A DNA stretch of 32,000 bases from Xanthobacteraceae bacterium (GCA_035622435.1 DASPVJ010000322.1:485-32484), one strand, 5' to 3'; shown: positions 1,191 to 10,091, counted from the first letter of the stretch. Notes: generated by a model not told the origin, from the letters alone. Translations and numbers: made by a program.

Positions 1191-1300
1191 GGAGCATGAT
1201 GCCGAAAAAGCCTGCCCCGCACTTGATGCGGGGTGGGTACCGGTTTTCGGAAAAACATCATGCTCCAACAATAAGATAAAGCGGGATGGCGAAAGCCATC
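1191..1300. repeat. REP-type palindromic intergenic element (GGAGCATGATGCCGAAAA ... TTTTCGG-AAAAA-CATCATGCTCC plus inner hairpins)
   Basis: 11-bp perfect arms at 1191-1201 and 1256-1266, extended by CCGAAAA/TTTTCGG. Inner hairpins are CCCCGCA/TGCGGGG (1215-1233) and GATGGC-GAAA-GCCATC (1285-1300). It lies between convergent genes. Confidence 0.8.
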
Positions 1301-1305
1301 ACGCT

Positions 1306-1983
1306 TTAGCGATTGGCCGCGGCCAGGGCGGCGATGTCGGTCTTGATCTTCGCCAGCACGTCGGTGAGCGTGCCGGAGTCCTGATAGACCGCGAAGCGGT
1401 AGAACAGGACGGTGCGGTTCTTGACGATAGTGACGGCAAAGATCGTCACTTGCGTCTTGTCGACGCCGGCCTCGGTCCTGATCCGCTGGACCAGCGCGGC
1501 ATAGCACGCCCCGGGCTCCTCGGCGACAACCCCGAGGAAGTTCGTCTGGTTTATCTTGATCTGTTTGAGCGTGCTCTCGACGCGCGCTTTGATGTCCGGC
1601 AGCTGATCGGCGAGGATCTTGTCGCCCTGCGCGTGCAGGGTGGCGCACGTCTGCGCCACCGATTCCGAGGGCGGCTTGTCCATCCCGGCGATGATGGTCT
1701 GGTACTGCGCGTAGTCGTCGAGCAGCTGCCGCCTGCCCGTGCGCCAATCAGTGAGCTGTTGGCAATCGGCCGACATGGCGAGGAGCTTGTTGCCCGATTT
1801 CTCCAGCAGCCCCGAAAGGGTGGTGATCATTTGCTGGTCGGACGGATTGAGATCCGACAGCTCGCAGAATCCCGTCGGCGGCGGGAGATCGACCGGAACG
1901 CCCCCGATCGTGGTCTGCGCCGCCGGCGCGCCCGTTATGGCGGCGGCAAGGAAAAGCGCGGCGACGGTCGGACGGCTCAACAT
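1306..1983 (-). CDS. hypothetical secreted/periplasmic protein (225 aa, signal peptide, 4 Cys)
   Basis: ATG at 1983 sits 7 nt downstream of GGAGG. The N-terminus MLSRPTVAALFLAAAITGAPAAQ looks like a Sec signal. The remainder is a balanced soluble sequence and I recognise no family. The 559-aa track ORF is an upstream extension overlapping the HlyD-like gene. Confidence 0.7.
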   Translation of the reverse strand: MLSRPTVAALFLAAAITGAPAAQTTIGGVPVDLPPPTGFCELSDLNPSDQQMITTLSGLLEKSGNKLLAMSADCQQLTDWRTGRRQLLDDYAQYQTIIAGMDKPPSESVAQTCATLHAQGDKILADQLPDIKARVESTLKQIKINQTNFLGVVAEEPGACYAALVQRIRTEAGVDKTQVTIFAVTIVKNRTVLFYRFAVYQDSGTLTDVLAKIKTDIAALAAANR

Positions 1984-2039
1984 GGCGATACCTCCCATGG
2001 CCAACGCGGCGGAACCGCTCCGCCCGCAGATGTCACGGC

Positions 2040-3035
2040 TCACGCCTTCGGGCAAGCGGCAAATTTCACCAGCACGCGAAGCCCGATCGGCCAGTTGGGC
2101 GCGTCGCCGGCGAGCGCAAGGACCACGCCGCGCACCGTATCGCCTTCCCGCTCGCTGCCGTCCGCGCGCAACGTGCGCCGCGTCAGCTCGGCAGCGAGGC
2201 GCTCGGACGTCGCCGCCGCCTGCACGCCGGGAAAGGCGTCGGCGGTGACGACCGCGTGCTGGGCGAGGCACAGCTTGCCGAGATCGCGTTCGTCGACTTC
2301 GGCGCGCACGCGCCGCGTGCGCTCGTCCATCACGGTCAACAACGCGGTCGGAATGGCGGTGCTGATGAACTGGCCGGGCGCGGCGTGGACGGCGAGTACG
2401 ACGGCGTCGACCGGGGCGCGCACGGCGCAATAATCGAGGTTCACGGCGGCCTGATCGCGCTGCGCCTGCGCCATGTCGCGGCGCGCGCGCGCCTCGGCGA
2501 TGTCCTCCTGGCGGGAGCCGGCCTTGAGCAGGGCCAGGCGGGCGCGCGCCTCCTCGAGCAGCGCCGTCGCCATGCGGGCGTCGCGCTTGGCCTGGTCGAC
2601 CTGCGCCTTGGTGATCGTCACCCCTTCGACCAGCGCGGTCGCCCGGCGCAGCGAAATGCCCGCCTCTTCCGCGCGCGCCTCCGCCAAGCCGACGTTGGCG
2701 ATGCCGATGCCGATCTCCTCCGGGCGCGGGCCGTTGACCGTGCGCGCCAGCGCCGCCTCGGCGGCGCCCAGGAACCCCTTGCGCGCGTCGAGCTCCTTTT
2801 CCAGGTTCTCGCAGGAAATCCGCGCCAGCAATTGGCCGGCGGCGACGCGTTCGCCTTCGTGCACGAGCACCTCGGCGACGACGCCGCTTACCGCGGCGCC
2901 GATCGGCATGCGCTCGCCCCCTTCGAGGCGGCCCGGCGCGGCGACCACGACCTTGTCGCCGACCTGCGCCGAGGTCGCCTCGCACCCCGCGCAGCCGATC
3001 GCCGCGAGCAGGATGAGGAACAGGTTCCGCGGCAT
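2040..3035 (-). CDS. HlyD-family membrane-fusion (periplasmic adaptor) protein, probable lipoprotein
   Basis: MPRNLFLILLAAIGCAGC has a lipobox-like signal. Barrel-sandwich segments (GVVAEVLVHEGERVAAGQLLARI; VRAPVDAVVLAVHAAPGQF) flank a long Ala/Arg/Glu coiled-coil hairpin, as in HlyD/EmrA/MacA adaptors. Confidence 0.85.
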   Translation of the reverse strand: MPRNLFLILLAAIGCAGCEATSAQVGDKVVVAAPGRLEGGERMPIGAAVSGVVAEVLVHEGERVAAGQLLARISCENLEKELDARKGFLGAAEAALARTVNGPRPEEIGIGIANVGLAEARAEEAGISLRRATALVEGVTITKAQVDQAKRDARMATALLEEARARLALLKAGSRQEDIAEARARRDMAQAQRDQAAVNLDYCAVRAPVDAVVLAVHAAPGQFISTAIPTALLTVMDERTRRVRAEVDERDLGKLCLAQHAVVTADAFPGVQAAATSERLAAELTRRTLRADGSEREGDTVRGVVLALAGDAPNWPIGLRVLVKFAACPKA

Positions 3036-3256
3036 CGCGCGTCTCCGTCCGTTCGGCGGTCGCCCTCGGCGCAATTGCTATCCTACCGCTCGGCGATGCG
3101 AAAGCCGTTCAGGTCCCGATGGCGCCTGCGTAATTGCGGCTTGCCGCACGCCCGACAAGCCGGCATCATTGGAAGAGAAGCGCGTCCGCGTCACAACGGT
3201 GCGTTGTCCAGCCGATGGACCGTCCCGCGTCCGCGATGCCGCAAGGGAGTACCCGC

Positions 3257-3967
3257 ATGCCCAAGCGCAATGCCGCAGCCGTCTTCAACCGCGCGAAGGC
3301 CCCGACCATCGCCTGCATCGACTTGGCGCAGACCCCGCTGGGGGTCGACCTCGGCAGGCTCGTTCGCGCGCTACAGAAATTCGTCGACGACCACTTTGCC
3401 CCGGTTTGGGGAACGCCGGCGAAGCTCGTCAAGGCAACCCATCCGCCGCGCGGCGCCTGGGTCCTGGTCTTTCTCGAGAGCGCGGACCCGCGCCACGCCA
3501 AAGCCTTCGGCTACCACAAGCCGTTCTTCGGCGCGTATGGCTATCCGGTCGCCAAGGTGTTCGTGCGGTCGATCCGCGAGAATGAGGAATCGGTCAGCCT
3601 GGTGGCGAGCCACGAGCTCGCCGAAATGCTGGTCGATCCGGGCGGAAATCTGTGGTCCCCCGACCGCAGCAAGAAAATTTTCTACGCCTATGAGGTTTGC
3701 GACGCGGTGGAGGAGGAAAAATTCAAGATCGACGGCCTGGAAATGAGCGACTTCGTCTATCCGGCCTATTACGAGGCGTTCCGCAAGCGCAAGTCGGTGC
3801 AATTCGATCATCTCAAGAAAATAACGCGGCCATTCCAGGTACTCACAGGCGGCTACGCCATAGCGCGCAAGCGCGGCAAGGTGATTACCATCCACGGCAG
3901 CAAGGCGAAGCGGCGGCGCTTCGCCAAGGAGGATCGCCGCCAGCACCGCACCGAAGCCATGCGGTAG
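3257..3967 (+). CDS. hypothetical protein (236 aa), acidic core with strongly basic C-terminal tail
   Basis: ATG at 3257 is preceded by GGGAG. Coding looks coherent, but I recognise no family. It contains SHELAEMLVDP and the tail KAKRRRFAKEDRRQHR. The 3' half is about 52% GC by hand count of lines 3661-3840. Confidence 0.65.
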   Translation: MPKRNAAAVFNRAKAPTIACIDLAQTPLGVDLGRLVRALQKFVDDHFAPVWGTPAKLVKATHPPRGAWVLVFLESADPRHAKAFGYHKPFFGAYGYPVAKVFVRSIRENEESVSLVASHELAEMLVDPGGNLWSPDRSKKIFYAYEVCDAVEEEKFKIDGLEMSDFVYPAYYEAFRKRKSVQFDHLKKITRPFQVLTGGYAIARKRGKVITIHGSKAKRRRFAKEDRRQHRTEAMR

Positions 3968-3974
3968 TTTCCGA

Positions 3975-4382
3975 TCATATCATACGGAACCCATGCAGGG
4001 TCAGGTCGGCGTCGACGTCGGTGAACGCGACCTCGACCCGCTGGCCGATGGCGATCGGCCGGTCGCCGGCATCGACGATACGCGAGGTCAGGCGCGGGCC
4101 TTCGTCCAATTCGACCTGCACGACGAGGTAGGGCGTCTCGTCGGCAAACGCCGGGAACCAGGCCTTGTGGACCTTGGTCCAGGTGCTCACCCGCCCGCGG
4201 CACGACGCCGGCCGCCAGGCGATATCGTCGGCAAAGCAGAACGGGCAGACCGGCCCGGGCGGCAGGTGCGCCTTGCCGCAGGCGCGGCAGGTCGGCAGCA
4301 GCAGGCGATGCGCGCGGCAGCCCTGCCAGAACGGCGCGTTGTCCGGGCCGACGCGCGGGCGCGGTTTGGCATGAGTGGTCAT
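3975..4382 (-). CDS. Zn-ribbon/OB-fold protein (DUF35 family), thiolase-associated
   Basis: CxxC...CxxC rubredoxin-like ribbon (CRACGKAHLPPGPVCPFC) is followed by an OB-fold-like C-terminus. It lies downstream of an SCP-x-type thiolase, the usual pairing. ATG at 4382 follows AAGGA. Confidence 0.85.
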   Translation of the reverse strand: MTTHAKPRPRVGPDNAPFWQGCRAHRLLLPTCRACGKAHLPPGPVCPFCFADDIAWRPASCRGRVSTWTKVHKAWFPAFADETPYLVVQVELDEGPRLTSRIVDAGDRPIAIGQRVEVAFTDVDADLTLHGFRMI

Positions 4383-4402
4383 GGCACCGTCCTTTCGTGA
4401 TC

Positions 4403-4530
4403 GTCATTGCGAGCGAAGCGAAGCAATCCATTTTGTAGGGCGCAATAGGCCGGAGGCCGTATTGCGCCGGACGCAAGGCGGCGCAATACGCTTCCCCCCG
4501 CTTCGCGGGGGCAAGGCTATTGCGCCCTAC
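4403..4530. repeat. REP-type multi-hairpin element (GTCATTGCGAGCGAAGCGAAGCAATCC family)
   Basis: Arms GTAGGGCGCAATAG (4434-4447) / CTATTGCGCCCTAC (4517-4530). Inner arms CGTATTGCGCC (4458-4468) / GGCGCAATACG (4480-4490), plus a CCCCCCGCTTCGCGGGGG hairpin. The CATTGCGAGCGAAGCGAAGCAATCC motif is a common Rhizobiales repeat. Confidence 0.8.
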
Positions 4531-4537
4531 CATTCGC

Positions 4538-5701
4538 TCACCCCGTCAAAATCACCGCGTCGCCCCAGGCGGTACCCCAGTGCAGGACGTTGGCGCCCGG
4601 AATCTGCGTCGCCCCCGCGGTGCCGCGCAATTGCCGCACCATTTCGCATATCGAGTTCCAGCCGGCGAGGTGGGCTTCCGACAACAGCCCGCCCGACGTG
4701 TTGACCGGCAGCGCGCCGCCGATTTCGATGCGCCCGTCCTGCACCCACGCCGCCGCCTCGCCCGCGCCGCAGTAGCCGAACCGTTCGAGCGCGAACAGCA
4801 CGAGCGGCGAGAACGCGTCGTAGGTGTAGAAGCCGTGCACGTCGTCGCGCTTGACGCCGGCGCGCGCGAAGACTTCGAGGTCGACCGGCCGCGCTCCCGC
4901 CGGCGCCGCCGTCTGCTGATTGATGCCGAGCCCGCGCGGGGCGAAAATGAACTCGTCGCGGCCGGCGCGGGTGCCCTGCATGCCGGCGATGCGCACCGGC
5001 TTTTGCTTGAGGTCGCGGGCGCGTTCGCCGCGCGCGATGAGCACCACCGCGGCGCCGTCGCTGATCAGACAACAGTCGAACAGCCGCAGCGGGTCGACCA
5101 CCATGCGCGCGGCCTGGTGCGCCGCGAGCGTGAGCGGCTCGCGCATGATCGCCCGCGGGTTCATGCACGCATGCTTGCGCATGGCGATCGGCACCGCGGC
5201 GAGCTCGTCGCCGGTGGCGCCATAAAGGTGCATGTAGCGCTGCATGGCGATGGCCGCGCCGCCGGCCGGCGCGGTGAGGCCGAAGGGCGGCGCTTCCCCG
5301 TGGGTGCCGCCTTCCTCGCGGTTGCCCTCGACGTCGCCGGGGCCGCCGAGGAAGCCGCGCTCGCGGGTGAAGCTCACCGCGGTCACGCAGGCGACCACGT
5401 CGGCGAGCCCGGCGGACACCGCGAGCGCTGCGTGCTGCAGCGCGTTGGTGACGAAGCGGCCGTGCAGCCACGACTGGTTGACGTAGCGGATGTTAAGCCC
5501 GAACGCCTCGGCGATGCGGTCGTAGTCGGGCCCGAGCGGCCAGCCGAGATGGATCGACAGGCCGTCGACGTCGGCGCGCTCCAAGCCGGCGTCGGCGAGC
5601 GCGGCCTTGAACGCGATCGCCGCGAGGGCGAGCTGACTCTCGGCGAGCCCGCGCCCGAACCGGCTGCACCCGATGCCGACGATGGCCGCGTCGAGAGTCA
5701 T
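4538..5701 (-). CDS. thiolase-family protein (SCP-x / lipid-transfer type acetyl-CoA acetyltransferase-like)
   Basis: 387 aa. N-terminal AIVGIGCSRFG and C-terminal NTSGGLLSEAHLAGWN resemble SCP2-type thiolases. ATG at 5701 follows GAAGG. Confidence 0.9.
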   Translation of the reverse strand: MTLDAAIVGIGCSRFGRGLAESQLALAAIAFKAALADAGLERADVDGLSIHLGWPLGPDYDRIAEAFGLNIRYVNQSWLHGRFVTNALQHAALAVSAGLADVVACVTAVSFTRERGFLGGPGDVEGNREEGGTHGEAPPFGLTAPAGGAAIAMQRYMHLYGATGDELAAVPIAMRKHACMNPRAIMREPLTLAAHQAARMVVDPLRLFDCCLISDGAAVVLIARGERARDLKQKPVRIAGMQGTRAGRDEFIFAPRGLGINQQTAAPAGARPVDLEVFARAGVKRDDVHGFYTYDAFSPLVLFALERFGYCGAGEAAAWVQDGRIEIGGALPVNTSGGLLSEAHLAGWNSICEMVRQLRGTAGATQIPGANVLHWGTAWGDAVILTG

Positions 5702-5719
5702 GGCGCGCCTTCTTTCTTA

Positions 5720-5889
5720 TCCCTCCCCCTTGTGGGGAGGTTCGCCCGCAGGAGCGGAGCGAAGGCGGGCGGGGTGGGGGTGCCTCAGATGACGAGCGAC
5801 GGACGAGATGCCCGCCGCCCGTTCTCGCCTTTCTCAATCACCCCCACCCCGCTCCGCCCGCTTTGCGGGCGTCGCGACCCTCGCCACAA
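5720..5889. repeat. REP-type element (CCCTCCCCCTTGTGGGGAGG ... GGGGTGGGGGTG / CACCCCCACCCC ...)
   Basis: Inverted segments GCGGGCGGGGTGGGGGTG (about 5765-5782) and CACCCCCACCCCGCTCCGCCCGC (about 5840-5862). A CCCTCCCCCTTGTGGGGAGG hairpin lies at 5722-5741. The right edge is interrupted by the IS element. Confidence 0.7.
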
Positions 5890-5967
5890 GGGCGATTATC
5901 CCGGACTTGACTTAGGTAGCACAGTATTCTACCGAAGTCTCGACAGGCCGGCCCCTTACCACAGTAC

Positions 5968-6180
5968 CTACCCGATCAACTCGGCCGGCTCGACCCGCAG
6001 CGCGCGGGCCAGCCGGCCAAGCACCACGACCGTTGCCGCAGTAGAACCGCGCTCAATCGAGCCGAGATAGCGCACGCTTATGTCCGCCCGATCCGCCAGC
6101 TCCTCTTGCGTCAGCTTCCTTTCGAGGCGCAAACGCCGCACGTTCGCCGCCATTGCCCGCTTCAAATCCATGGCGGCCAT
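5968..6180 (-). CDS. XRE-family helix-turn-helix transcriptional regulator (about 67-70 aa; IS cargo)
   Basis: MAAMDLKRAMAANVRRLRLERKLTQEELADRADISVRYLGSIERG... is a canonical Cro/C1-type HTH. ATGs occur at 6180 and 6171. The 142-aa TTG-initiated track ORF adds an implausible N-terminal extension. Confidence 0.8.
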   Translation of the reverse strand: MAAMDLKRAMAANVRRLRLERKLTQEELADRADISVRYLGSIERGSTAATVVVLGRLARALRVEPAELIG

Positions 6181-6237
6181 CGGCAGCACGACAGGAACAA
6201 TATTGCCAGGAAGTATACTGCCGACTAGGCTGACGAC

Positions 6238-6528
6238 ATGGACAATCCGCTTGTTGCCATCGTCGGGACCGTCGAAGTCGTCGGGGCGGTTGAACTCGAC
6301 ATCGACGACACGACCTACAGCCACGTCGTCATCCGCGACCGCCGTGGCGAGTTGCGATGCTTCGCAACGGTTCGCGCGGTGCCGGGCATCTCTCAATTGG
6401 TTGAGTCGGAGGCTATCGGGCTGTTTGTCTTTTCAGAAGGGACGGCAGAATGCCGGCTTTGGTGCGTGGTGTGTGAGGATGGCCGTCAGGCGGTGGATTT
6501 CGGGGCGCTGCGGGCACTGGCGACTTAG
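6238..6528 (+). CDS. hypothetical small protein (96 aa; IS cargo), divergent from the XRE gene
   Basis: ATG at 6238. By eye most codons end in G/C, more than in the overlapping antisense frame. I recognise no family and see no clear SD. Confidence 0.45.
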   Translation: MDNPLVAIVGTVEVVGAVELDIDDTTYSHVVIRDRRGELRCFATVRAVPGISQLVESEAIGLFVFSEGTAECRLWCVVCEDGRQAVDFGALRALAT

Positions 6529-6541
6529 GGCTCTCCCGGCT

Positions 6542-7384
6542 CTAAGTGTTCTTGCTGTAGTCGGGATGGTCGAAAGCGCTCAGGCGACCGTCCTTGTCTC
6601 GCCGAAAAATGAATCTGTGTTCGTGTTCCGTGCCGAAGATGTCATTGTAAATTATTCGACCATAAAACCAGAAATAGGTGTGACGGCGGATGATGCTTTC
6701 AGCGTCACGCACGCTCATGCTGGTTGCTTCGCAGGACAATTGCCAAGTCTCCTTATCGGGATCAATGACGCGATCCCGCTCTGTGGGGAGTCCTACGACG
6801 GGCAGATTTCCGGTCAAACAGGCATCCCATGGCGGCGGGGCGGCCCAGTAGGAGAAATCGCGGCAAATAGCTTTCAGGATGGCTGGCGTCTTGCCGTGGT
6901 TTTTGAAGTAGAATCCGACGGTGATTGGAACGGATGGAACAGCATCTTTTTGCAGTCCCTTGCCGGTGATCTCCCGGATGGCGTCCGTCACATTGTCACT
7001 CGCGATCTCGGCGAACATATGCGCCCGCTCGGATTGGGTCAACGCGATAGCGGAATCGTGGGCGGCCAAAGCAGCGACACGGGTTGCGGAAGCAAGCTTA
7101 ACCGTGAAAACGCCGAGAATTGTCGTAAACAGGGCGATGACTACGGTCGAAATAGCGGTGATGGCAGCGTTGTTTTTGTCAACGAAGTCACCAAGGCAAC
7201 CGATGATGAGGCGCATCACGAGGATTTGGGGCGTACGCTCATCTTTGGATTTGCCGCCTGGTTGTGCTTCACTCTTGCTTATGCACTCGTGATAAGATGA
7301 TGATTGGACTACGACAAAACCGAGACATGCGGCACCGATCAAGAGTAGAGCCGCAATTCCTGCTATGCGCGCTGCTTTCAGCAT
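6542..7384 (-). CDS. hypothetical membrane protein (280 aa, two N-terminal TM helices plus soluble C-terminal domain; IS cargo)
   Basis: ATG at 7384-7382 overlaps the transposase stop (ATGCTGA). The TM helices are IAGIAALLLIGAACLGFVVV and AAITAISTVVIALFTTILGVFTV. The C-terminal roughly 180 aa is a mixed soluble domain with no family recognised. Track ORF residues upstream of this Met overlap the transposase. Confidence 0.7.
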   Translation of the reverse strand: MLKAARIAGIAALLLIGAACLGFVVVQSSSYHECISKSEAQPGGKSKDERTPQILVMRLIIGCLGDFVDKNNAAITAISTVVIALFTTILGVFTVKLASATRVAALAAHDSAIALTQSERAHMFAEIASDNVTDAIREITGKGLQKDAVPSVPITVGFYFKNHGKTPAILKAICRDFSYWAAPPPWDACLTGNLPVVGLPTERDRVIDPDKETWQLSCEATSMSVRDAESIIRRHTYFWFYGRIIYNDIFGTEHEHRFIFRRDKDGRLSAFDHPDYSKNT

Positions 7385-8295
7385 CCGTTGATTGCCGCAC
7401 CAAAGATGTCCGCATTCTCTCGATTGTTGTAGCGGAACTGAAATTCCGCGACGTACAGCGGCATGTATTTCTTGCTGACCTTGTGGAACGTGCCGACCAC
7501 GCCGCGCTTGATGATGGACCAAAAGCCCTCAAGCGTGTTCGTGTGGACCGCGCCGACGACGTATTGATGCGCGGAATGGTCAACGGTTTTGTGCGGATAG
7601 TCGGTAAGGTTCCTGTATCCAGAGTGCTGGTCCGTGCAGAGCAGGCTGACTTTGTCGGATACGGCTTCGCGGACGAAACCTTCCATCGTCGCGGTATCGG
7701 TGTTCTCGATAACCCGCGCGACGACATTGCCCTTCCGGCGCACGGCGCCGATGATTGCTGTCTTACCGGAACCGATGCCGCCGGTTCCACCGCCGCGTTT
7801 ATCCCAATGTTTGTTATACCATTTGCCGCCGACGAAAGTTTCGTCGACCTCTACAATGCCGCCAAGCCTTTCCATGTCGTTCTCGATCAGTGCGACGCGG
7901 ATGCGATGGCACATGTACCAAGCGGTTTTGTAGGAACCGAAGCCCATGTAGCGATAGATTTGCAGGGCCGACATGCCCTTTTTGCTGGTCAGCATCAGGT
8001 GCGTGACCTTGAACCAATCCCGCAACGGCTTGTTCGTGTTCTCGAAAATCGTACCGGCAATGTGCGAGAACCGATAGGTCGTATCGGGTGCGCACTGGCG
8101 GCATTGCCAATGAAAGGCCATCGTCGAAACCGGGCGCGGGTCCGGCGCTCCGCAGCGCGGGCAATGCACCCCTTCCGGCCAGCGGCGCGCCACAAGGTAG
8201 CGGGCACAAGCCTCTTCGTCCGGGAAAAAGGCTTCGAATTGAGGTTCGCTAAGCTGGTGAACCGGCTTCGGCCGGGCGCTGCGCTTGCGGGCCAT
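7378..8295 (-). CDS. IS1595-family (ISXO2-like) DDE transposase with N-terminal zinc ribbon
   Basis: Motifs FFPDEEACARYLVARRWPEGVHCPRCG...WQCRQC, VEVDETFVGGK and HTNTLEGFWSIIKRGVVGTFHKVSKKYMPLYVAEFQFRYNNR. ATG at 8295 sits 6 nt downstream of GGGGAGGG. Confidence 0.93.
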   Translation of the reverse strand: MARKRSARPKPVHQLSEPQFEAFFPDEEACARYLVARRWPEGVHCPRCGAPDPRPVSTMAFHWQCRQCAPDTTYRFSHIAGTIFENTNKPLRDWFKVTHLMLTSKKGMSALQIYRYMGFGSYKTAWYMCHRIRVALIENDMERLGGIVEVDETFVGGKWYNKHWDKRGGGTGGIGSGKTAIIGAVRRKGNVVARVIENTDTATMEGFVREAVSDKVSLLCTDQHSGYRNLTDYPHKTVDHSAHQYVVGAVHTNTLEGFWSIIKRGVVGTFHKVSKKYMPLYVAEFQFRYNNRENADIFGAAINGC

Positions 8296-8396
8296 TGGAG
8301 TCCCTCCCCGTGATCGGTAGAACAATCCTACCGCGTCCGGGAGCGGAAGTCAAGTCCGGGATAATCGCCCCCCACAAGGGGGAGGGTAAGCGCGGC

Positions 8397-9473
8397 CTAT
8401 TTCACCACCAAGTCCAACTGCAGCGCTTCGTTGAACGGCACGGCGGAATGGGCGATGCCGTTGCCGGCCGATTGGCCGTCGCCGCTCACCGTATAGAGCC
8501 GGTCGCCGATGACGCCGACGGCGAGGCCGTGGCGCGGATGCGGCATCGACGGCAGTATCTGCCAGCGGTTGAGCGCGGGATCGTAGATTTCCACCGCCTT
8601 GAACGCGGCGAGCAGGCGGCGGTCCTGGAACTCGCCGCCCGGCACCAGGATGCGCCCGTTGTAGACGCCGCCGCCGATGGCGCTGCGCGGCGTCGGCATG
8701 CGCTCGCGCACGGTCCAGGCGTCGGCTACGGGATCGTACATTTCGACGAGATCGATGTTGTTGCTGCCGCCGGAAATGAACGCCGCGCCGATGCGCCCGC
8801 CGATGGCGTAGATCTTCTCGCCGACCGTGGCGACGGCGTGATGGTTGCGCGCGACCAGCAGGGGCGCGCGCGCGCGCCAGGCATTGGTCGCCGGATCGTA
8901 TTCCTCGACGGTCGCGAGCACGTGGTGGGCGCGGGTCGGATGGATGCCGGTTTCGCTCGACCCGGGCAGCGAATTGGCGCCGCCGGTGACGTAGATCTTG
9001 CCGTCGACGACCGCCGCCCCCGCCGCGCCGCGCTTGGTCGGCATCGGCGCCAGCGCCTTCCAGCTGTCGGCCGCGGGATCGTATTCCCACGCATTGTCGA
9101 GGGGGCGCCAGGCGGGCGGCCCGGAATCCGGCAGGGTGAAGCCGCCGAACGCGTAGATCTTGTCGTTGAGCATGGCGAAGGCGACGTGATGCGAGGGCAG
9201 CTGCATCGGCTTCTTCTGCGCCCATTTGTTGCTCGCCGGGTCGTATTCGTAGACCAGCGCCTTCGGCGTCCAGTTGGGGCCGATGCCGCAGAAGACGTAG
9301 AGCTTGCCGGCGGCAACGGCGCCGAGCACTTCCTCGGACGGGTCCGGGAACGGCGCGAGGATGACCCACGGGGCGGCCGCCGTCGGCGCCGGCGCCTGCG
9401 CGCGCGCCACGCCGAGCGCGATGATCGTGATCGCGAGCGCGCCGGCGATGATGCGAGCCGCGCGGCTCGTCAT
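8397..9473 (-). CDS. Kelch-repeat (beta-propeller) protein, secreted
   Basis: Signal peptide MTSRAARIIAGALAITIIALGVARAQA. Repeated GKLYVFGG / DKIYAFGG / GKIYVTGG / EKIYAIGG / GRILVPGG / DRLYTVSG blades each carry a YDPxxxxW motif. The rest of the 859-aa track ORF is a spurious extension. Confidence 0.88.
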   Translation of the reverse strand: MTSRAARIIAGALAITIIALGVARAQAPAPTAAAPWVILAPFPDPSEEVLGAVAAGKLYVFCGIGPNWTPKALVYEYDPASNKWAQKKPMQLPSHHVAFAMLNDKIYAFGGFTLPDSGPPAWRPLDNAWEYDPAADSWKALAPMPTKRGAAGAAVVDGKIYVTGGANSLPGSSETGIHPTRAHHVLATVEEYDPATNAWRARAPLLVARNHHAVATVGEKIYAIGGRIGAAFISGGSNNIDLVEMYDPVADAWTVRERMPTPRSAIGGGVYNGRILVPGGEFQDRRLLAAFKAVEIYDPALNRWQILPSMPHPRHGLAVGVIGDRLYTVSGDGQSAGNGIAHSAVPFNEALQLDLVVK

Positions 9474-9551
9474 GGCCGGGCTTGTCCCGGCCATCCACGC
9501 CTTGCTTTGTTTGCGTTCAAGACGTGGATGCCCGGCACAAGGCCGGGCATG
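9471..9551. repeat. REP-type palindromic element (CATGCCCGGCCTTGTGCCGGGCATCCACG... family), copy 1
   Basis: An 81-bp near-perfect palindrome, CATGGCCGGGCTTGTCCCGGCCATCCACGCCTTG...CAAGACGTGGATGCCCGGCACAAGGCCGGGCATG. A sibling copy lies at 13221-13295. Confidence 0.85.
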
Positions 9552-9680
9552 ACGGCGGAGAATGACTGACATGGGTTCCTCCCCGGCTGTTCTCGTTGGG
9601 GCGCGAGCAAACCATAGGCGCGCGCGCAGGCGCAATGACGGAACTGGACACGGCGGGGGCGCGGTGGCAGAAGCGCCGGG

Positions 9681-10091
9681 ATGAAAACCTTCCTGCTGCG
9701 CTTCTTCACCTGGTGGAACAGCCAGACCTTCGGCACGCAGCTGTGGACGCGCCTTTACGGCGAGTTCGTCGGCGAGGACGAGTTCGCCAACCGCTACTAC
9801 CGCACCCGCGGCGGCAAGATCGATCCGACGCTCGGCTTCGAGCGGCGCTGGGTGATCTACAGCGGTTACGCCGAGGCCTCGACCGTGCCCCCCGGCTGGT
9901 ACGGCTGGCTGCATCACACGGTCGACCTGCCGCCGACCGAGGTCGCCGCGACGCCGCGGCCGTGGGCGAAGCCGCACCGGCCGAACCTCACCGGCACGCC
10001 GCTCGCTTGGCGCCCGCCCGGCTCGACCCTGGCCGAGAGCCACCGCCCGCCGGCGACCGGCGACTACCAGCCCTGGACCCCGGGACAGTAG
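9681..10091 (+). CDS. NADH:ubiquinone oxidoreductase subunit NDUFA12-family protein
   Basis: FFTWWNSQTFGTQLWTRLYGEFVGEDEFANRYYR...WHGWLHHT-like signature of alphaproteobacterial NDUFA12 homologues. It shows the conserved neighbourhood with DUF2155 and aat. Confidence 0.9.
   Translation: MKTFLLRFFTWWNSQTFGTQLWTRLYGEFVGEDEFANRYYRTRGGKIDPTLGFERRWVIYSGYAEASTVPPGWYGWLHHTVDLPPTEVAATPRPWAKPHRPNLTGTPLAWRPPGSTLAESHRPPATGDYQPWTPGQ

Follow-up and report, generated by a model that had tools for sequence, protein, structure and literature searches.

The locus described here lies in a 32,000-nt stretch of DNA from a Xanthobacteraceae bacterium (GCA_035622435.1, DASPVJ010000322.1:485-32484), which is referred to at its full length as the window. 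An element with the features of an IS1595-family insertion sequence (IS) occupies positions 5891-8369 (2,479-2,481 bp) between a thiolase-like gene and a Kelch-repeat gene, and contains four genes, all inside a pair of inverted repeats (IRs). These genes encode a transposase, the protein of a second open reading frame (ORF2), a small protein named orf96, and a regulator of the XRE family. The features of the element and of its immediate surroundings are as follows, with positions counted from the first letter of the window.

5875-5890, plus strand: left half of a split repetitive extragenic palindromic (REP) hairpin, made up of CCCTCGCCACAAG and the first ambiguous G, with the left-hand target repeat inside it
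5891-5913, plus strand: transposase-distal terminal IR (IRR), a perfect repeat with the same conserved end as in sister elements
5915-5935, plus strand: subterminal hairpin GGTAG-N9-CTACCGA beside IRR, a weak fold as DNA (-2.5 kcal/mol, z about -3.5)
5968-6180, minus strand: XRE-family helix-turn-helix regulator of 70 aa, read outward toward IRR (Pfam HTH_3, 5.4e-16)
6181-6237, no strand: divergent XRE/orf96 control region with two tandem AGGAAGTATAYTGCC-like boxes
6238-6528, plus strand: orf96, a conserved protein of 96 aa with an all-beta, OB-fold-like model and 26 homologues
6523-6547, plus strand: 10-bp stem-loop where orf96 and ORF2 converge, a weak terminator-like match of a kind not more frequent than in shuffled sequences
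6542-7384, minus strand: ORF2, 280 aa, with an ATG that overlaps the transposase stop codon (ATGCTGA); two hydrophobic helices and a C-terminal beta-sandwich
7378-8295, minus strand: intact IS1595-family DDE transposase, 305 aa (918 nt), with an N-terminal zinc ribbon and GGGGAGGGA upstream of the ATG
8314-8332, minus strand: hairpin GGTAG-N7-CTACCGA over the transposase -10 box (TAGGAT), a weak fold as DNA (-5.1 kcal/mol, z about -3.5)
8347-8369, minus strand: transposase-proximal terminal IR (IRL), GGCGATTATCCCGGACTTGACTT on the minus strand, a perfect repeat; the identical 23 nt bound sister elements
8370-8386, plus strand: right half of the split REP hairpin, CCCCACAAGGGGGAGGG, complementary at 17/17 positions to the intact REP copy at 5721-5737

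The transposase belongs to the IS1595 family, as an initial annotation of this DNA had proposed, since it scored far above the curated cut-offs and contained both IS1595 Pfam domains. The catalytic domain (PF12762, DDE_Tnp_IS1595, ISXO2-like) was matched with 8.5e-38 and 130 bits against a cut-off of 27 over positions 2-153 of 153, and the zinc ribbon (PF12760, Zn_ribbon_IS1595) with 1.6e-10 and 41 bits against a cut-off of 25.4 at residues 25-68. The NCBIfam model of the IS1595 family transposase (NF033547) gave 1.1e-60 and 205 bits against a cut-off of 75 over its full length (positions 1-215/215), compared with 14 bits on the IS1 model. The 918-nt length of the gene (8295-7378) within an element of about 2,480 nt agreed with the earlier description. 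More than 7,000 relatives were found at E <= 1e-40, with source names no more specific than 'IS1595 family transposase'. The closest annotated plasmid transposases were at most 41% identical, so that this IS clade is absent from that plasmid collection; in the same collection, no megablast match to the whole element and no tblastn match to ORF2 or orf96 were obtained. A promoter scan indicated a sigma-70-like transposase promoter, TTGACT-17 nt-TAGGAT, on the minus strand at 8353-8325, with the -35 box inside the proximal IR.

The repeat that bounds the element, GGGCGATTATCCCGGACTTGACTT at 5890-5913, has an exact reverse complement at 8347-8370 (24/24), just as had been claimed. With up to three mismatches allowed, these were the only two matches in the window, none of 100 shuffled sequences contained a match, and neither an internal copy between ORF2 and the XRE gene nor any other third copy was found in the window. 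Comparison with sister elements showed that the conserved end consists of 23 nt beginning with GGCGATT, and that the adjoining outer base is variable. The guanine-plus-cytosine (GC) content was 57.8% for the whole element versus 69.0% for the remaining window, 66% for the XRE gene, and 58% for the transposase gene. The low GC content that had been noticed in hand-counted lines was reproduced (41.7%, 51.7%, and 46.7%), and the GGTAG-N7/9-CTACCGA mini-hairpins reported just inside the ends were present, as weak folds.

Relatives of the element were sought with a 20-nt core of the IR, which was scanned at the DNA level against one genome per species without use of any protein. The scan yielded 18 loci (numbered with the prefix L, as are all loci below), mostly in metagenome-assembled genomes of Xanthobacteraceae, Roseiarcus, Methylocapsa, Hyphomicrobiales, and Rhodospirillales. 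In 15 of the 18, the IR was adjoined by an IS1595 transposase gene, intact or as decayed fragments, and the intact transposases were 66-72% identical to that of the window. At L013 the element was cut by the contig end, and at L012 and L016 there was a single IR match with altered outer bases and no transposase. Both ends were present at eight loci, seven of which held complete elements (1.7-2.2 kb) flanked by perfect 8-bp duplications of unrelated, mostly AT-rich targets, as listed below.

L001: element of 1,862 bp, duplication GTCTTAAG
L003: element of 1,725 bp, duplication TCTATAGA
L009: element of 2,167 bp, duplication TCCGAAAA
L011: element of 1,871 bp, duplication ACTATATG
L015: element of 1,955 bp, duplication CTAATTCG
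L018: element of 2,087 bp, duplication CTTATAGT
L019: element of 2,019 bp, duplication CTCATTTG

From these comparisons comes direct evidence of transposition within the IS clade, and equally that the IR is no REP motif. A common REP motif was what the initial annotation had considered as the repeat's alternative identity; with an IS1595 transposase at 15 of the 18 loci, the check came out in favour of a transposon end. In viral contigs the same scan gave two matches (L047 and L048), which were rejected as IS ends on account of their different outer bases and the lack of a transposase.

The architecture of the window element recurs in its sisters. The promoter layout is the same, with the -35 box in the IR. 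All seven complete elements exceed the length needed for a transposase gene of 0.9 kb, and consequently all carry something extra; L001, L003, L011, and L014, whose IRs are as in the window, contain unrelated cargo or cargo on the other strand. The earlier estimate of about 1.5 kb of cargo inside the IRs of the window element was borne out, and the cargo varies among the sisters. In L018, CGGTAGAA...CTACCT is present as far from the IR as the hairpin at 5915-5935 is in the window, and a GTAG motif stands at that position in L009, L001, L011, and L015; judged by this conservation, the hairpin is part of the IS backbone. The subterminal hairpin shared with L018 indicates that the distal end is a true IS end and that the XRE and orf96 genes are therefore internal. 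At the position of the other hairpin (8314-8332), the sister elements have TATATT, TATCTT, or CAATAT without a hairpin.

The junctions of the window copy can be read in three ways. With ends consistent with the family (5891 and 8369), the adjoining eight nucleotides outside read GCCACAAG (left) and CCCCACAA (right). In the first reading the repeat is exact and 7 bp long, CCACAAG, and the transposase-proximal junction contains two additional C (a 2-nt offset); the second has a 9-bp duplication with one substitution (8/9; CGCCACAAG versus CCCCACAAG). The third takes the octamer CCACAAGG, found at 5884-5891 and 8372-8379, as the duplication and requires IR ends of unequal length; a third copy of this octamer is located at 8190 within the transposase gene. 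Thus, of the 8-bp target duplication that had been proposed, the octamer outside both ends was confirmed, but a clean duplication with family-consistent ends was not.

The flanking DNA itself indicates the nature of the target. When the element and one repeat copy are removed, the remaining GACCCTCGCCACAAGGGGGAGGG forms an imperfect hairpin with one mismatch (-8.7 kcal/mol, z -3.55; -11 kcal/mol with the C restored), similar to the intact REP hairpin copy at 5722-5740, as had been described. The REP motif CCTCCCC-N3-7-GGGGAGG was also found in five unrelated loci (L010, L011, L026, L027, and L046), and in L046 a different IS1595 element is likewise located within a REP hairpin, with a perfect duplication. 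Since the flanks rebuild one hairpin and the motif recurs elsewhere, the data support the claim that the element was inserted into a REP hairpin, at its loop and stem.

Two further observations were made around the junctions. The element of L038 (4016-5891) is flanked by a 9-bp direct repeat, TTTTCCGGT, with a 2-nt spacer to the transposase-proximal IR, a geometry like that of the window copy; the two cases hint at a variant outcome of cleavage or repair at the proximal end. Between the intact REP copy and the insertion, the intergenic DNA also contains an imperfect hairpin (5769-5789/5832-5852) with 21-nt arms that are 86% complementary, for which an Rfam search of 5763-5859 gave sub-threshold microRNA-like matches only. 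With its REP copy and long hairpin, the spacer resembles a cluster of palindromic elements.

ORF2, which follows the transposase gene immediately, had no family match in Pfam, NCBIfam, PADLOC, or PHROGs. Its AlphaFold2 model (pLDDT 77.8 overall and about 90 in the C-terminal half) contains two long helices with hydrophobic cores at about residues 5-27 and 75-97, followed by the beta-sandwich. A Foldseek search against the PDB gave generic Ig-like matches only (TRAP-beta, ApaG, an LEA protein, and TMEM106B), with E values of 6e-4 or worse and TM-scores of 0.26-0.56. The motifs N-x-G-(K/R)-T-P-A and W-F-Y-G-x-x-x-Y-x-D are conserved. A word-indexed search of 5.8 billion proteins found only 19 relatives. 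When 1.84 billion cluster representatives were searched exhaustively with a profile, 11,043 were obtained at E <= 1e-3, including 2,893 at E <= 1e-10. Among 37 sampled members of this superfamily, none had a Pfam domain or a PDB relative by sequence. The ORF2 fragment P0001, which is 100% identical, was also looked up as an exact protein, with no match.

In L006, L009, L015, L018, L019, and L038, the ORF2 profile matched the gene that comes next after the transposase. The window, L015, L018, and L038 share a 4-7 nt overlap between the stop codon of the transposase and the start of ORF2. The linkage was also judged on 11 informative loci that had been found via the protein alone. In six of them a co-oriented transposase, or its 3' remnant, lies directly upstream of the ORF2 homologue (L019, L022, L032, L033/34, L038, and, weakly, L020/21), and in L023 there is a diverged IS1595 transposase in the opposite orientation. 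The remaining four homologues (L024, L031, L035/36, and L039) have no transposase nearby, indicating that ORF2 exists outside the IS too. On the suggested check of whether the cargo always travels with this transposase, ORF2 thus had a co-oriented transposase or its remnant in the six loci and none in these four. Judged by gene order, ORF2 is the usual, though not obligatory, second gene of the IS clade, and it outlives the transposase in several places.

As a separate observation, the last 20-48 codons of the transposase stand alone in front of ORF2 homologues in L020 (3945-4004), L022 (3856-4004), L032 (395-526), and L033 (2407-2487), and in L022 a decayed distal IR is still present at 4872-4894.

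The other two passengers, the XRE gene and orf96, form a divergent cassette between ORF2 and the distal subterminal hairpin. Homologues of orf96 (n = 26) show 57-100% identity and are nearly all of 94-101 aa, and no family match was found in Pfam, NCBIfam, PADLOC, or PHROGs. The AlphaFold2 model (pLDDT 91.5) is all-beta, and its best fold matches were SSB, Rim1, IF-1, and the N-terminal OB domain of RecO, with TM-scores of at most 0.6 and E values of only about 1e-2; according to this model, orf96 is OB-fold-like and no more. A longer reading of the XRE gene (142 aa) overlaps orf96 on the opposite strand and adds no domain. This, together with the 26 homologues of orf96, led us to take the 70-aa XRE protein and orf96 as the real genes. 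Accordingly, the description of three cargo ORFs of unknown function stood for ORF2 and orf96, both without a family match, but not for the third, which encodes an ordinary XRE/HTH_3 regulator. The cargo had furthermore been regarded as a single gene set, and it proved to consist of two separate modules, ORF2 and XRE-orf96. The stem-loop at 6523-6547, where the two modules converge, is probably a two-way terminator.

The XRE gene was divergently paired with an orf96 homologue in all five contexts examined, and its product was 63-79% identical in L025, L026, L044/45, and L046. Across the five modules, the control region had a mean column identity of 77%, and XRE would repress orf96 through the conserved boxes. 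In L046 (3669-6813, 3,145 bp), the cassette is at the distal end of a different IS1595 element with the IR GGGAATTATCACCTTGACATAGTA and a perfect 8-bp duplication, CCCGCAAG, the one in a REP hairpin mentioned above. Its transposase is 38% identical to that of the window, and the gene order is transposase, a 288-aa ORF, PIN, orf96, and XRE. In L025 (1401-4337, 2,937 bp), the cassette is inside an IS1-like element with 28-nt IRs (GGTAGTGACGCATTTTGAAATC..) and a perfect 8-bp duplication, AAGTAAAA; this element encodes an IS1-like transposase of 292 aa and a 366-aa protein that matched a ClpP-like protease family (PF01972) weakly, below the cut-off of the model. In L044/45, some 1.5 kb separates the cassette from an IS1-like transposase and a DUF6471 gene. 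The L026 cassette stands beside FYDLN_acid, aroA, cmk, and rpsA where its contig begins, and no IS ends were seen there. Neither L019 nor L038, the closest relatives of the window element with ORF2, contains the cassette, and both are shorter by about 0.5-0.6 kb.

Two side observations concern this cassette. A possible promoter of orf96, TTGCCA-17-TAGGCT, coincides in part with the conserved boxes at 6200-6237. Only about 7 nt separate the end of its -10 box from the ATG, so that the orf96 mRNA may be almost leaderless. In addition, the small DUF6471 gene (L023, 3745-3987; L045, 5435-5695; 62% identical) is found beside IS1595 or IS1-like transposases, adjoining the ORF2 homologue in L023 and near XRE-orf96 in L045, and may be another recurring passenger.

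Taken together, these findings suggest that the segment 5891-8369 is very probably one transposable unit, a transporter IS of the IS1595 family, an assessment that applies to its identity and boundaries. By analogy with the family, the zinc-ribbon DDE transposase would be produced from the promoter whose -35 box is in the proximal IR, would bind the two 23-nt ends, and would move everything between them, normally with an 8-bp duplication. The window copy would have landed in the loop and stem of the REP hairpin. The first passenger module is ORF2, translationally coupled to the transposase and its usual partner gene in the clade, and the second is a self-contained cassette of a putative XRE repressor and the divergent orf96 with a conserved operator, placed between ORF2 and the distal hairpin. 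Of this picture, membership of the family, the limits of the element, the mobility of the clade, and the recurrence of both modules are demonstrated by the comparisons above, whereas the window copy itself may still be mobile.

Several points weigh against this interpretation. As described above, the window copy has no clean 8-bp duplication, its flanks being GCCACAAG and CCCCACAA, and four of the 11 informative ORF2-homologue loci lack a transposase nearby. An empty site, sought as the left flank, 6-16 nt, and the right flank, was not found in metagenome contigs. A second copy of the exact 2.48-kb element in a different flank was not found either, the exact orf96 protein being returned, beyond the window, only from L027 (the same insertion at the same site) and L028 (an internal fragment). 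Hence, neither the empty sites nor the additional copies by which the initial annotation had meant to check the element came to light, the one other assembly having the same insertion at the same site. Finally, the functions proposed for ORF2 and orf96 draw solely on weak fold matches.

ORF2 and XRE-orf96 could be accessory functions of the element itself and no passive passengers, a possibility that is compatible with a transporter IS but that we hold only tentatively. For example, ORF2 might provide membrane-linked control or compensate for host fitness, and the XRE/OB-fold pair might have a regulatory, DNA-handling, or addiction-like role. In accordance with this, ORF2 is coupled to the transposase and is found again in elements with no more than 65-72% transposase identity, three different IS1595 or IS1-like elements enclose the XRE-orf96 cassette while in a fourth case it lies near an IS1-like transposase, and the orf96 model resembles single-strand-binding OB folds. 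However, the four loci with other cargo have the same IRs, so that neither module is needed for movement; ORF2 homologues persist after decay of the transposase, which looks like host-side selection; and the XRE-orf96 sample comprises five contexts, with fold matches that are weak. ORF2 would serve the host or the element at the membrane.

With the same reserve, ORF2 and the XRE/OB-fold cassette might be portable accessory modules that have been recruited repeatedly by transposons of the IS1595 and IS1 types. ORF2 would then be a clade-wide second gene, translated with the transposase and kept by the host after the transposase has decayed, and XRE-orf96 would be a self-regulated, nucleic-acid-binding cassette that aids persistence or controls movement. 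If true, two uncharacterised protein families would become IS-associated functions, one of them with about 11,000 cluster representatives and no Pfam entry. Many members of this large ORF2 superfamily are found directly behind an IS1595 transposase or its remnant. The cargo offers an entry point to the question of why small ISs in soil Alphaproteobacteria carry membrane and nucleic-acid-binding proteins, and the cargo families would aid the annotation of these abundant elements, which break metagenome assemblies.

A different explanation concerns the activity of the window copy, not its identity: a once-mobile element might now be fixed, a fossil, or rearranged, with flanks derived from two REP insertions that were joined by recombination between ISs. 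Such a joining would explain the missing clean duplication, and the near-identity of REP hairpins means that two targets would give look-alike flanks. The imperfect duplication, the lack of an empty site in the scans, and the restriction of the only other full occurrence to the same site are in line with this history. Nevertheless, we consider it unlikely: the IRs match at 24/24 positions, the transposase ORF is intact and of full length, and both flanks rebuild a single hairpin with one mismatch. The comparison with L027 (ENA ERZ27251333) points in the same direction. The two sequences have 95 differences in 1250-5500 (about 2%), none in 5500-8438, and seven in 8439-8700; the difference-free tract takes in the whole element and its immediate flanks, and its contrast with the neighbouring DNA speaks for a recent arrival or spread and not for an old relic. 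Either a newly arrived element that spread by recombination or a mosaic consensus of the metagenome would account for the pattern. No exact match was obtained for the protein of the flanking thiolase-like gene.

It is still less probable, in fact very improbable, that the true IS consists of the transposase and ORF2 alone (about 1.9-2.0 kb, as in L019 and L038) and that XRE-orf96 is resident DNA beside a solo IR, the whole being a chance composite. The IR-sharing sister elements (L001-L019 and L038) do lack XRE-orf96, the cassette of L026 is beside core genes with no recognisable IS ends, and the GC content of the XRE gene is nearer to that of the host than to that of the transposase gene. On the other hand, no internal IR copy was found between ORF2 and the XRE gene with up to three mismatches, the distal IR is identical to the proximal one and is accompanied by a subterminal hairpin as in L018, and the flanks outside both IRs rebuild one REP hairpin. 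Moreover, L046 has the same gene order, with XRE-orf96 in the distal position inside its IRs and a perfect 8-bp duplication.

A reading of the 24-nt repeat as a host motif of the REP type with no relation to transposition is refuted: two of the 18 genome matches (L012 and L016) and both viral matches have no transposase nearby, but these four occur singly and differ in the outer 2-3 nt (3/24, or 2-3/23), whereas the remaining matches are paired or beside an IS1595 transposase, with 8-bp duplications, and in the window the motif is at the two element ends only.

Outside the element, translations of the window at 9450-9750 contain PGLVPGIHV and RPGHDE-type strings, which presumably belong to a dispersed repeat of Bradyrhizobium-like genomes.

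Among known systems, the IS1595 family comprises seven groups, all of which except IS1016 have an N-terminal zinc ribbon, and its members make 8-bp target-site duplications. The 'transporter IS', which carries passenger genes, was first defined in this family (Siguier, Gagnevin and Chandler 2009). As a class, therefore, the window element is ordinary, passenger-carrying IS1595-family ISs having been described since 2009, and its interest is in the recurring cargo. None of the libraries or papers searched described its specific passengers, of which one is a membrane protein with two helices and a beta-sandwich and the other an XRE/OB-fold cassette. A classical IS1595-family IS has a single transposase gene in about 0.7-1.2 kb, from which the window element differs in its length of 2,479-2,481 bp and its four genes; these differences mark it as a passenger-carrying variant and do not exclude it from the family.

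The XRE-orf96 cassette invites comparison with type II toxin-antitoxin modules and C-protein-like XRE cassettes, which likewise have a small XRE/HTH_3 regulator, a conserved operator, and a small partner gene. Indeed, the regulator gave weak, below-cut-off matches to models of the HipB/Y4mF antitoxin and of a restriction-modification control protein. A type II toxin-antitoxin pair is, however, co-transcribed, whereas XRE and orf96 are divergent, and the partner is OB-fold-like with no match to a toxin family; the toxin-antitoxin reading was set aside for these reasons. The IS1 family, whose DDE transposases belong to a related superfamily, is represented by the IS1-like element of L025, which also carries XRE-orf96.

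Within the IS1595 family, two groups come closest. The ISNha5 group consists of elements that are larger than that of the window, about 3.5-8 kb, and that have different ends (CGGnnTT). Transcription regulators are among the passengers of an IS1595-family element of this group, and the window element resembles it in belonging to the same family and in having a transcription regulator as a passenger. The ISNwi1 group includes passenger-carrying members of 1.75-4.75 kb, and the end GGCGATTAT fits ggnnatTAT, which we take to be the pattern of this group in the ISfinder family table. The ISNwi1-type transporter IS and the window element have in common the zinc ribbon with DDE_Tnp_IS1595, short terminal IRs, and passengers inside the IRs; the 8-bp duplications of this type were seen in the sister copies and not, in clean form, in the window copy. 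As in a transporter IS, three passenger genes are enclosed by the IRs of the window element, and its sisters carry varied cargo within identical ends.

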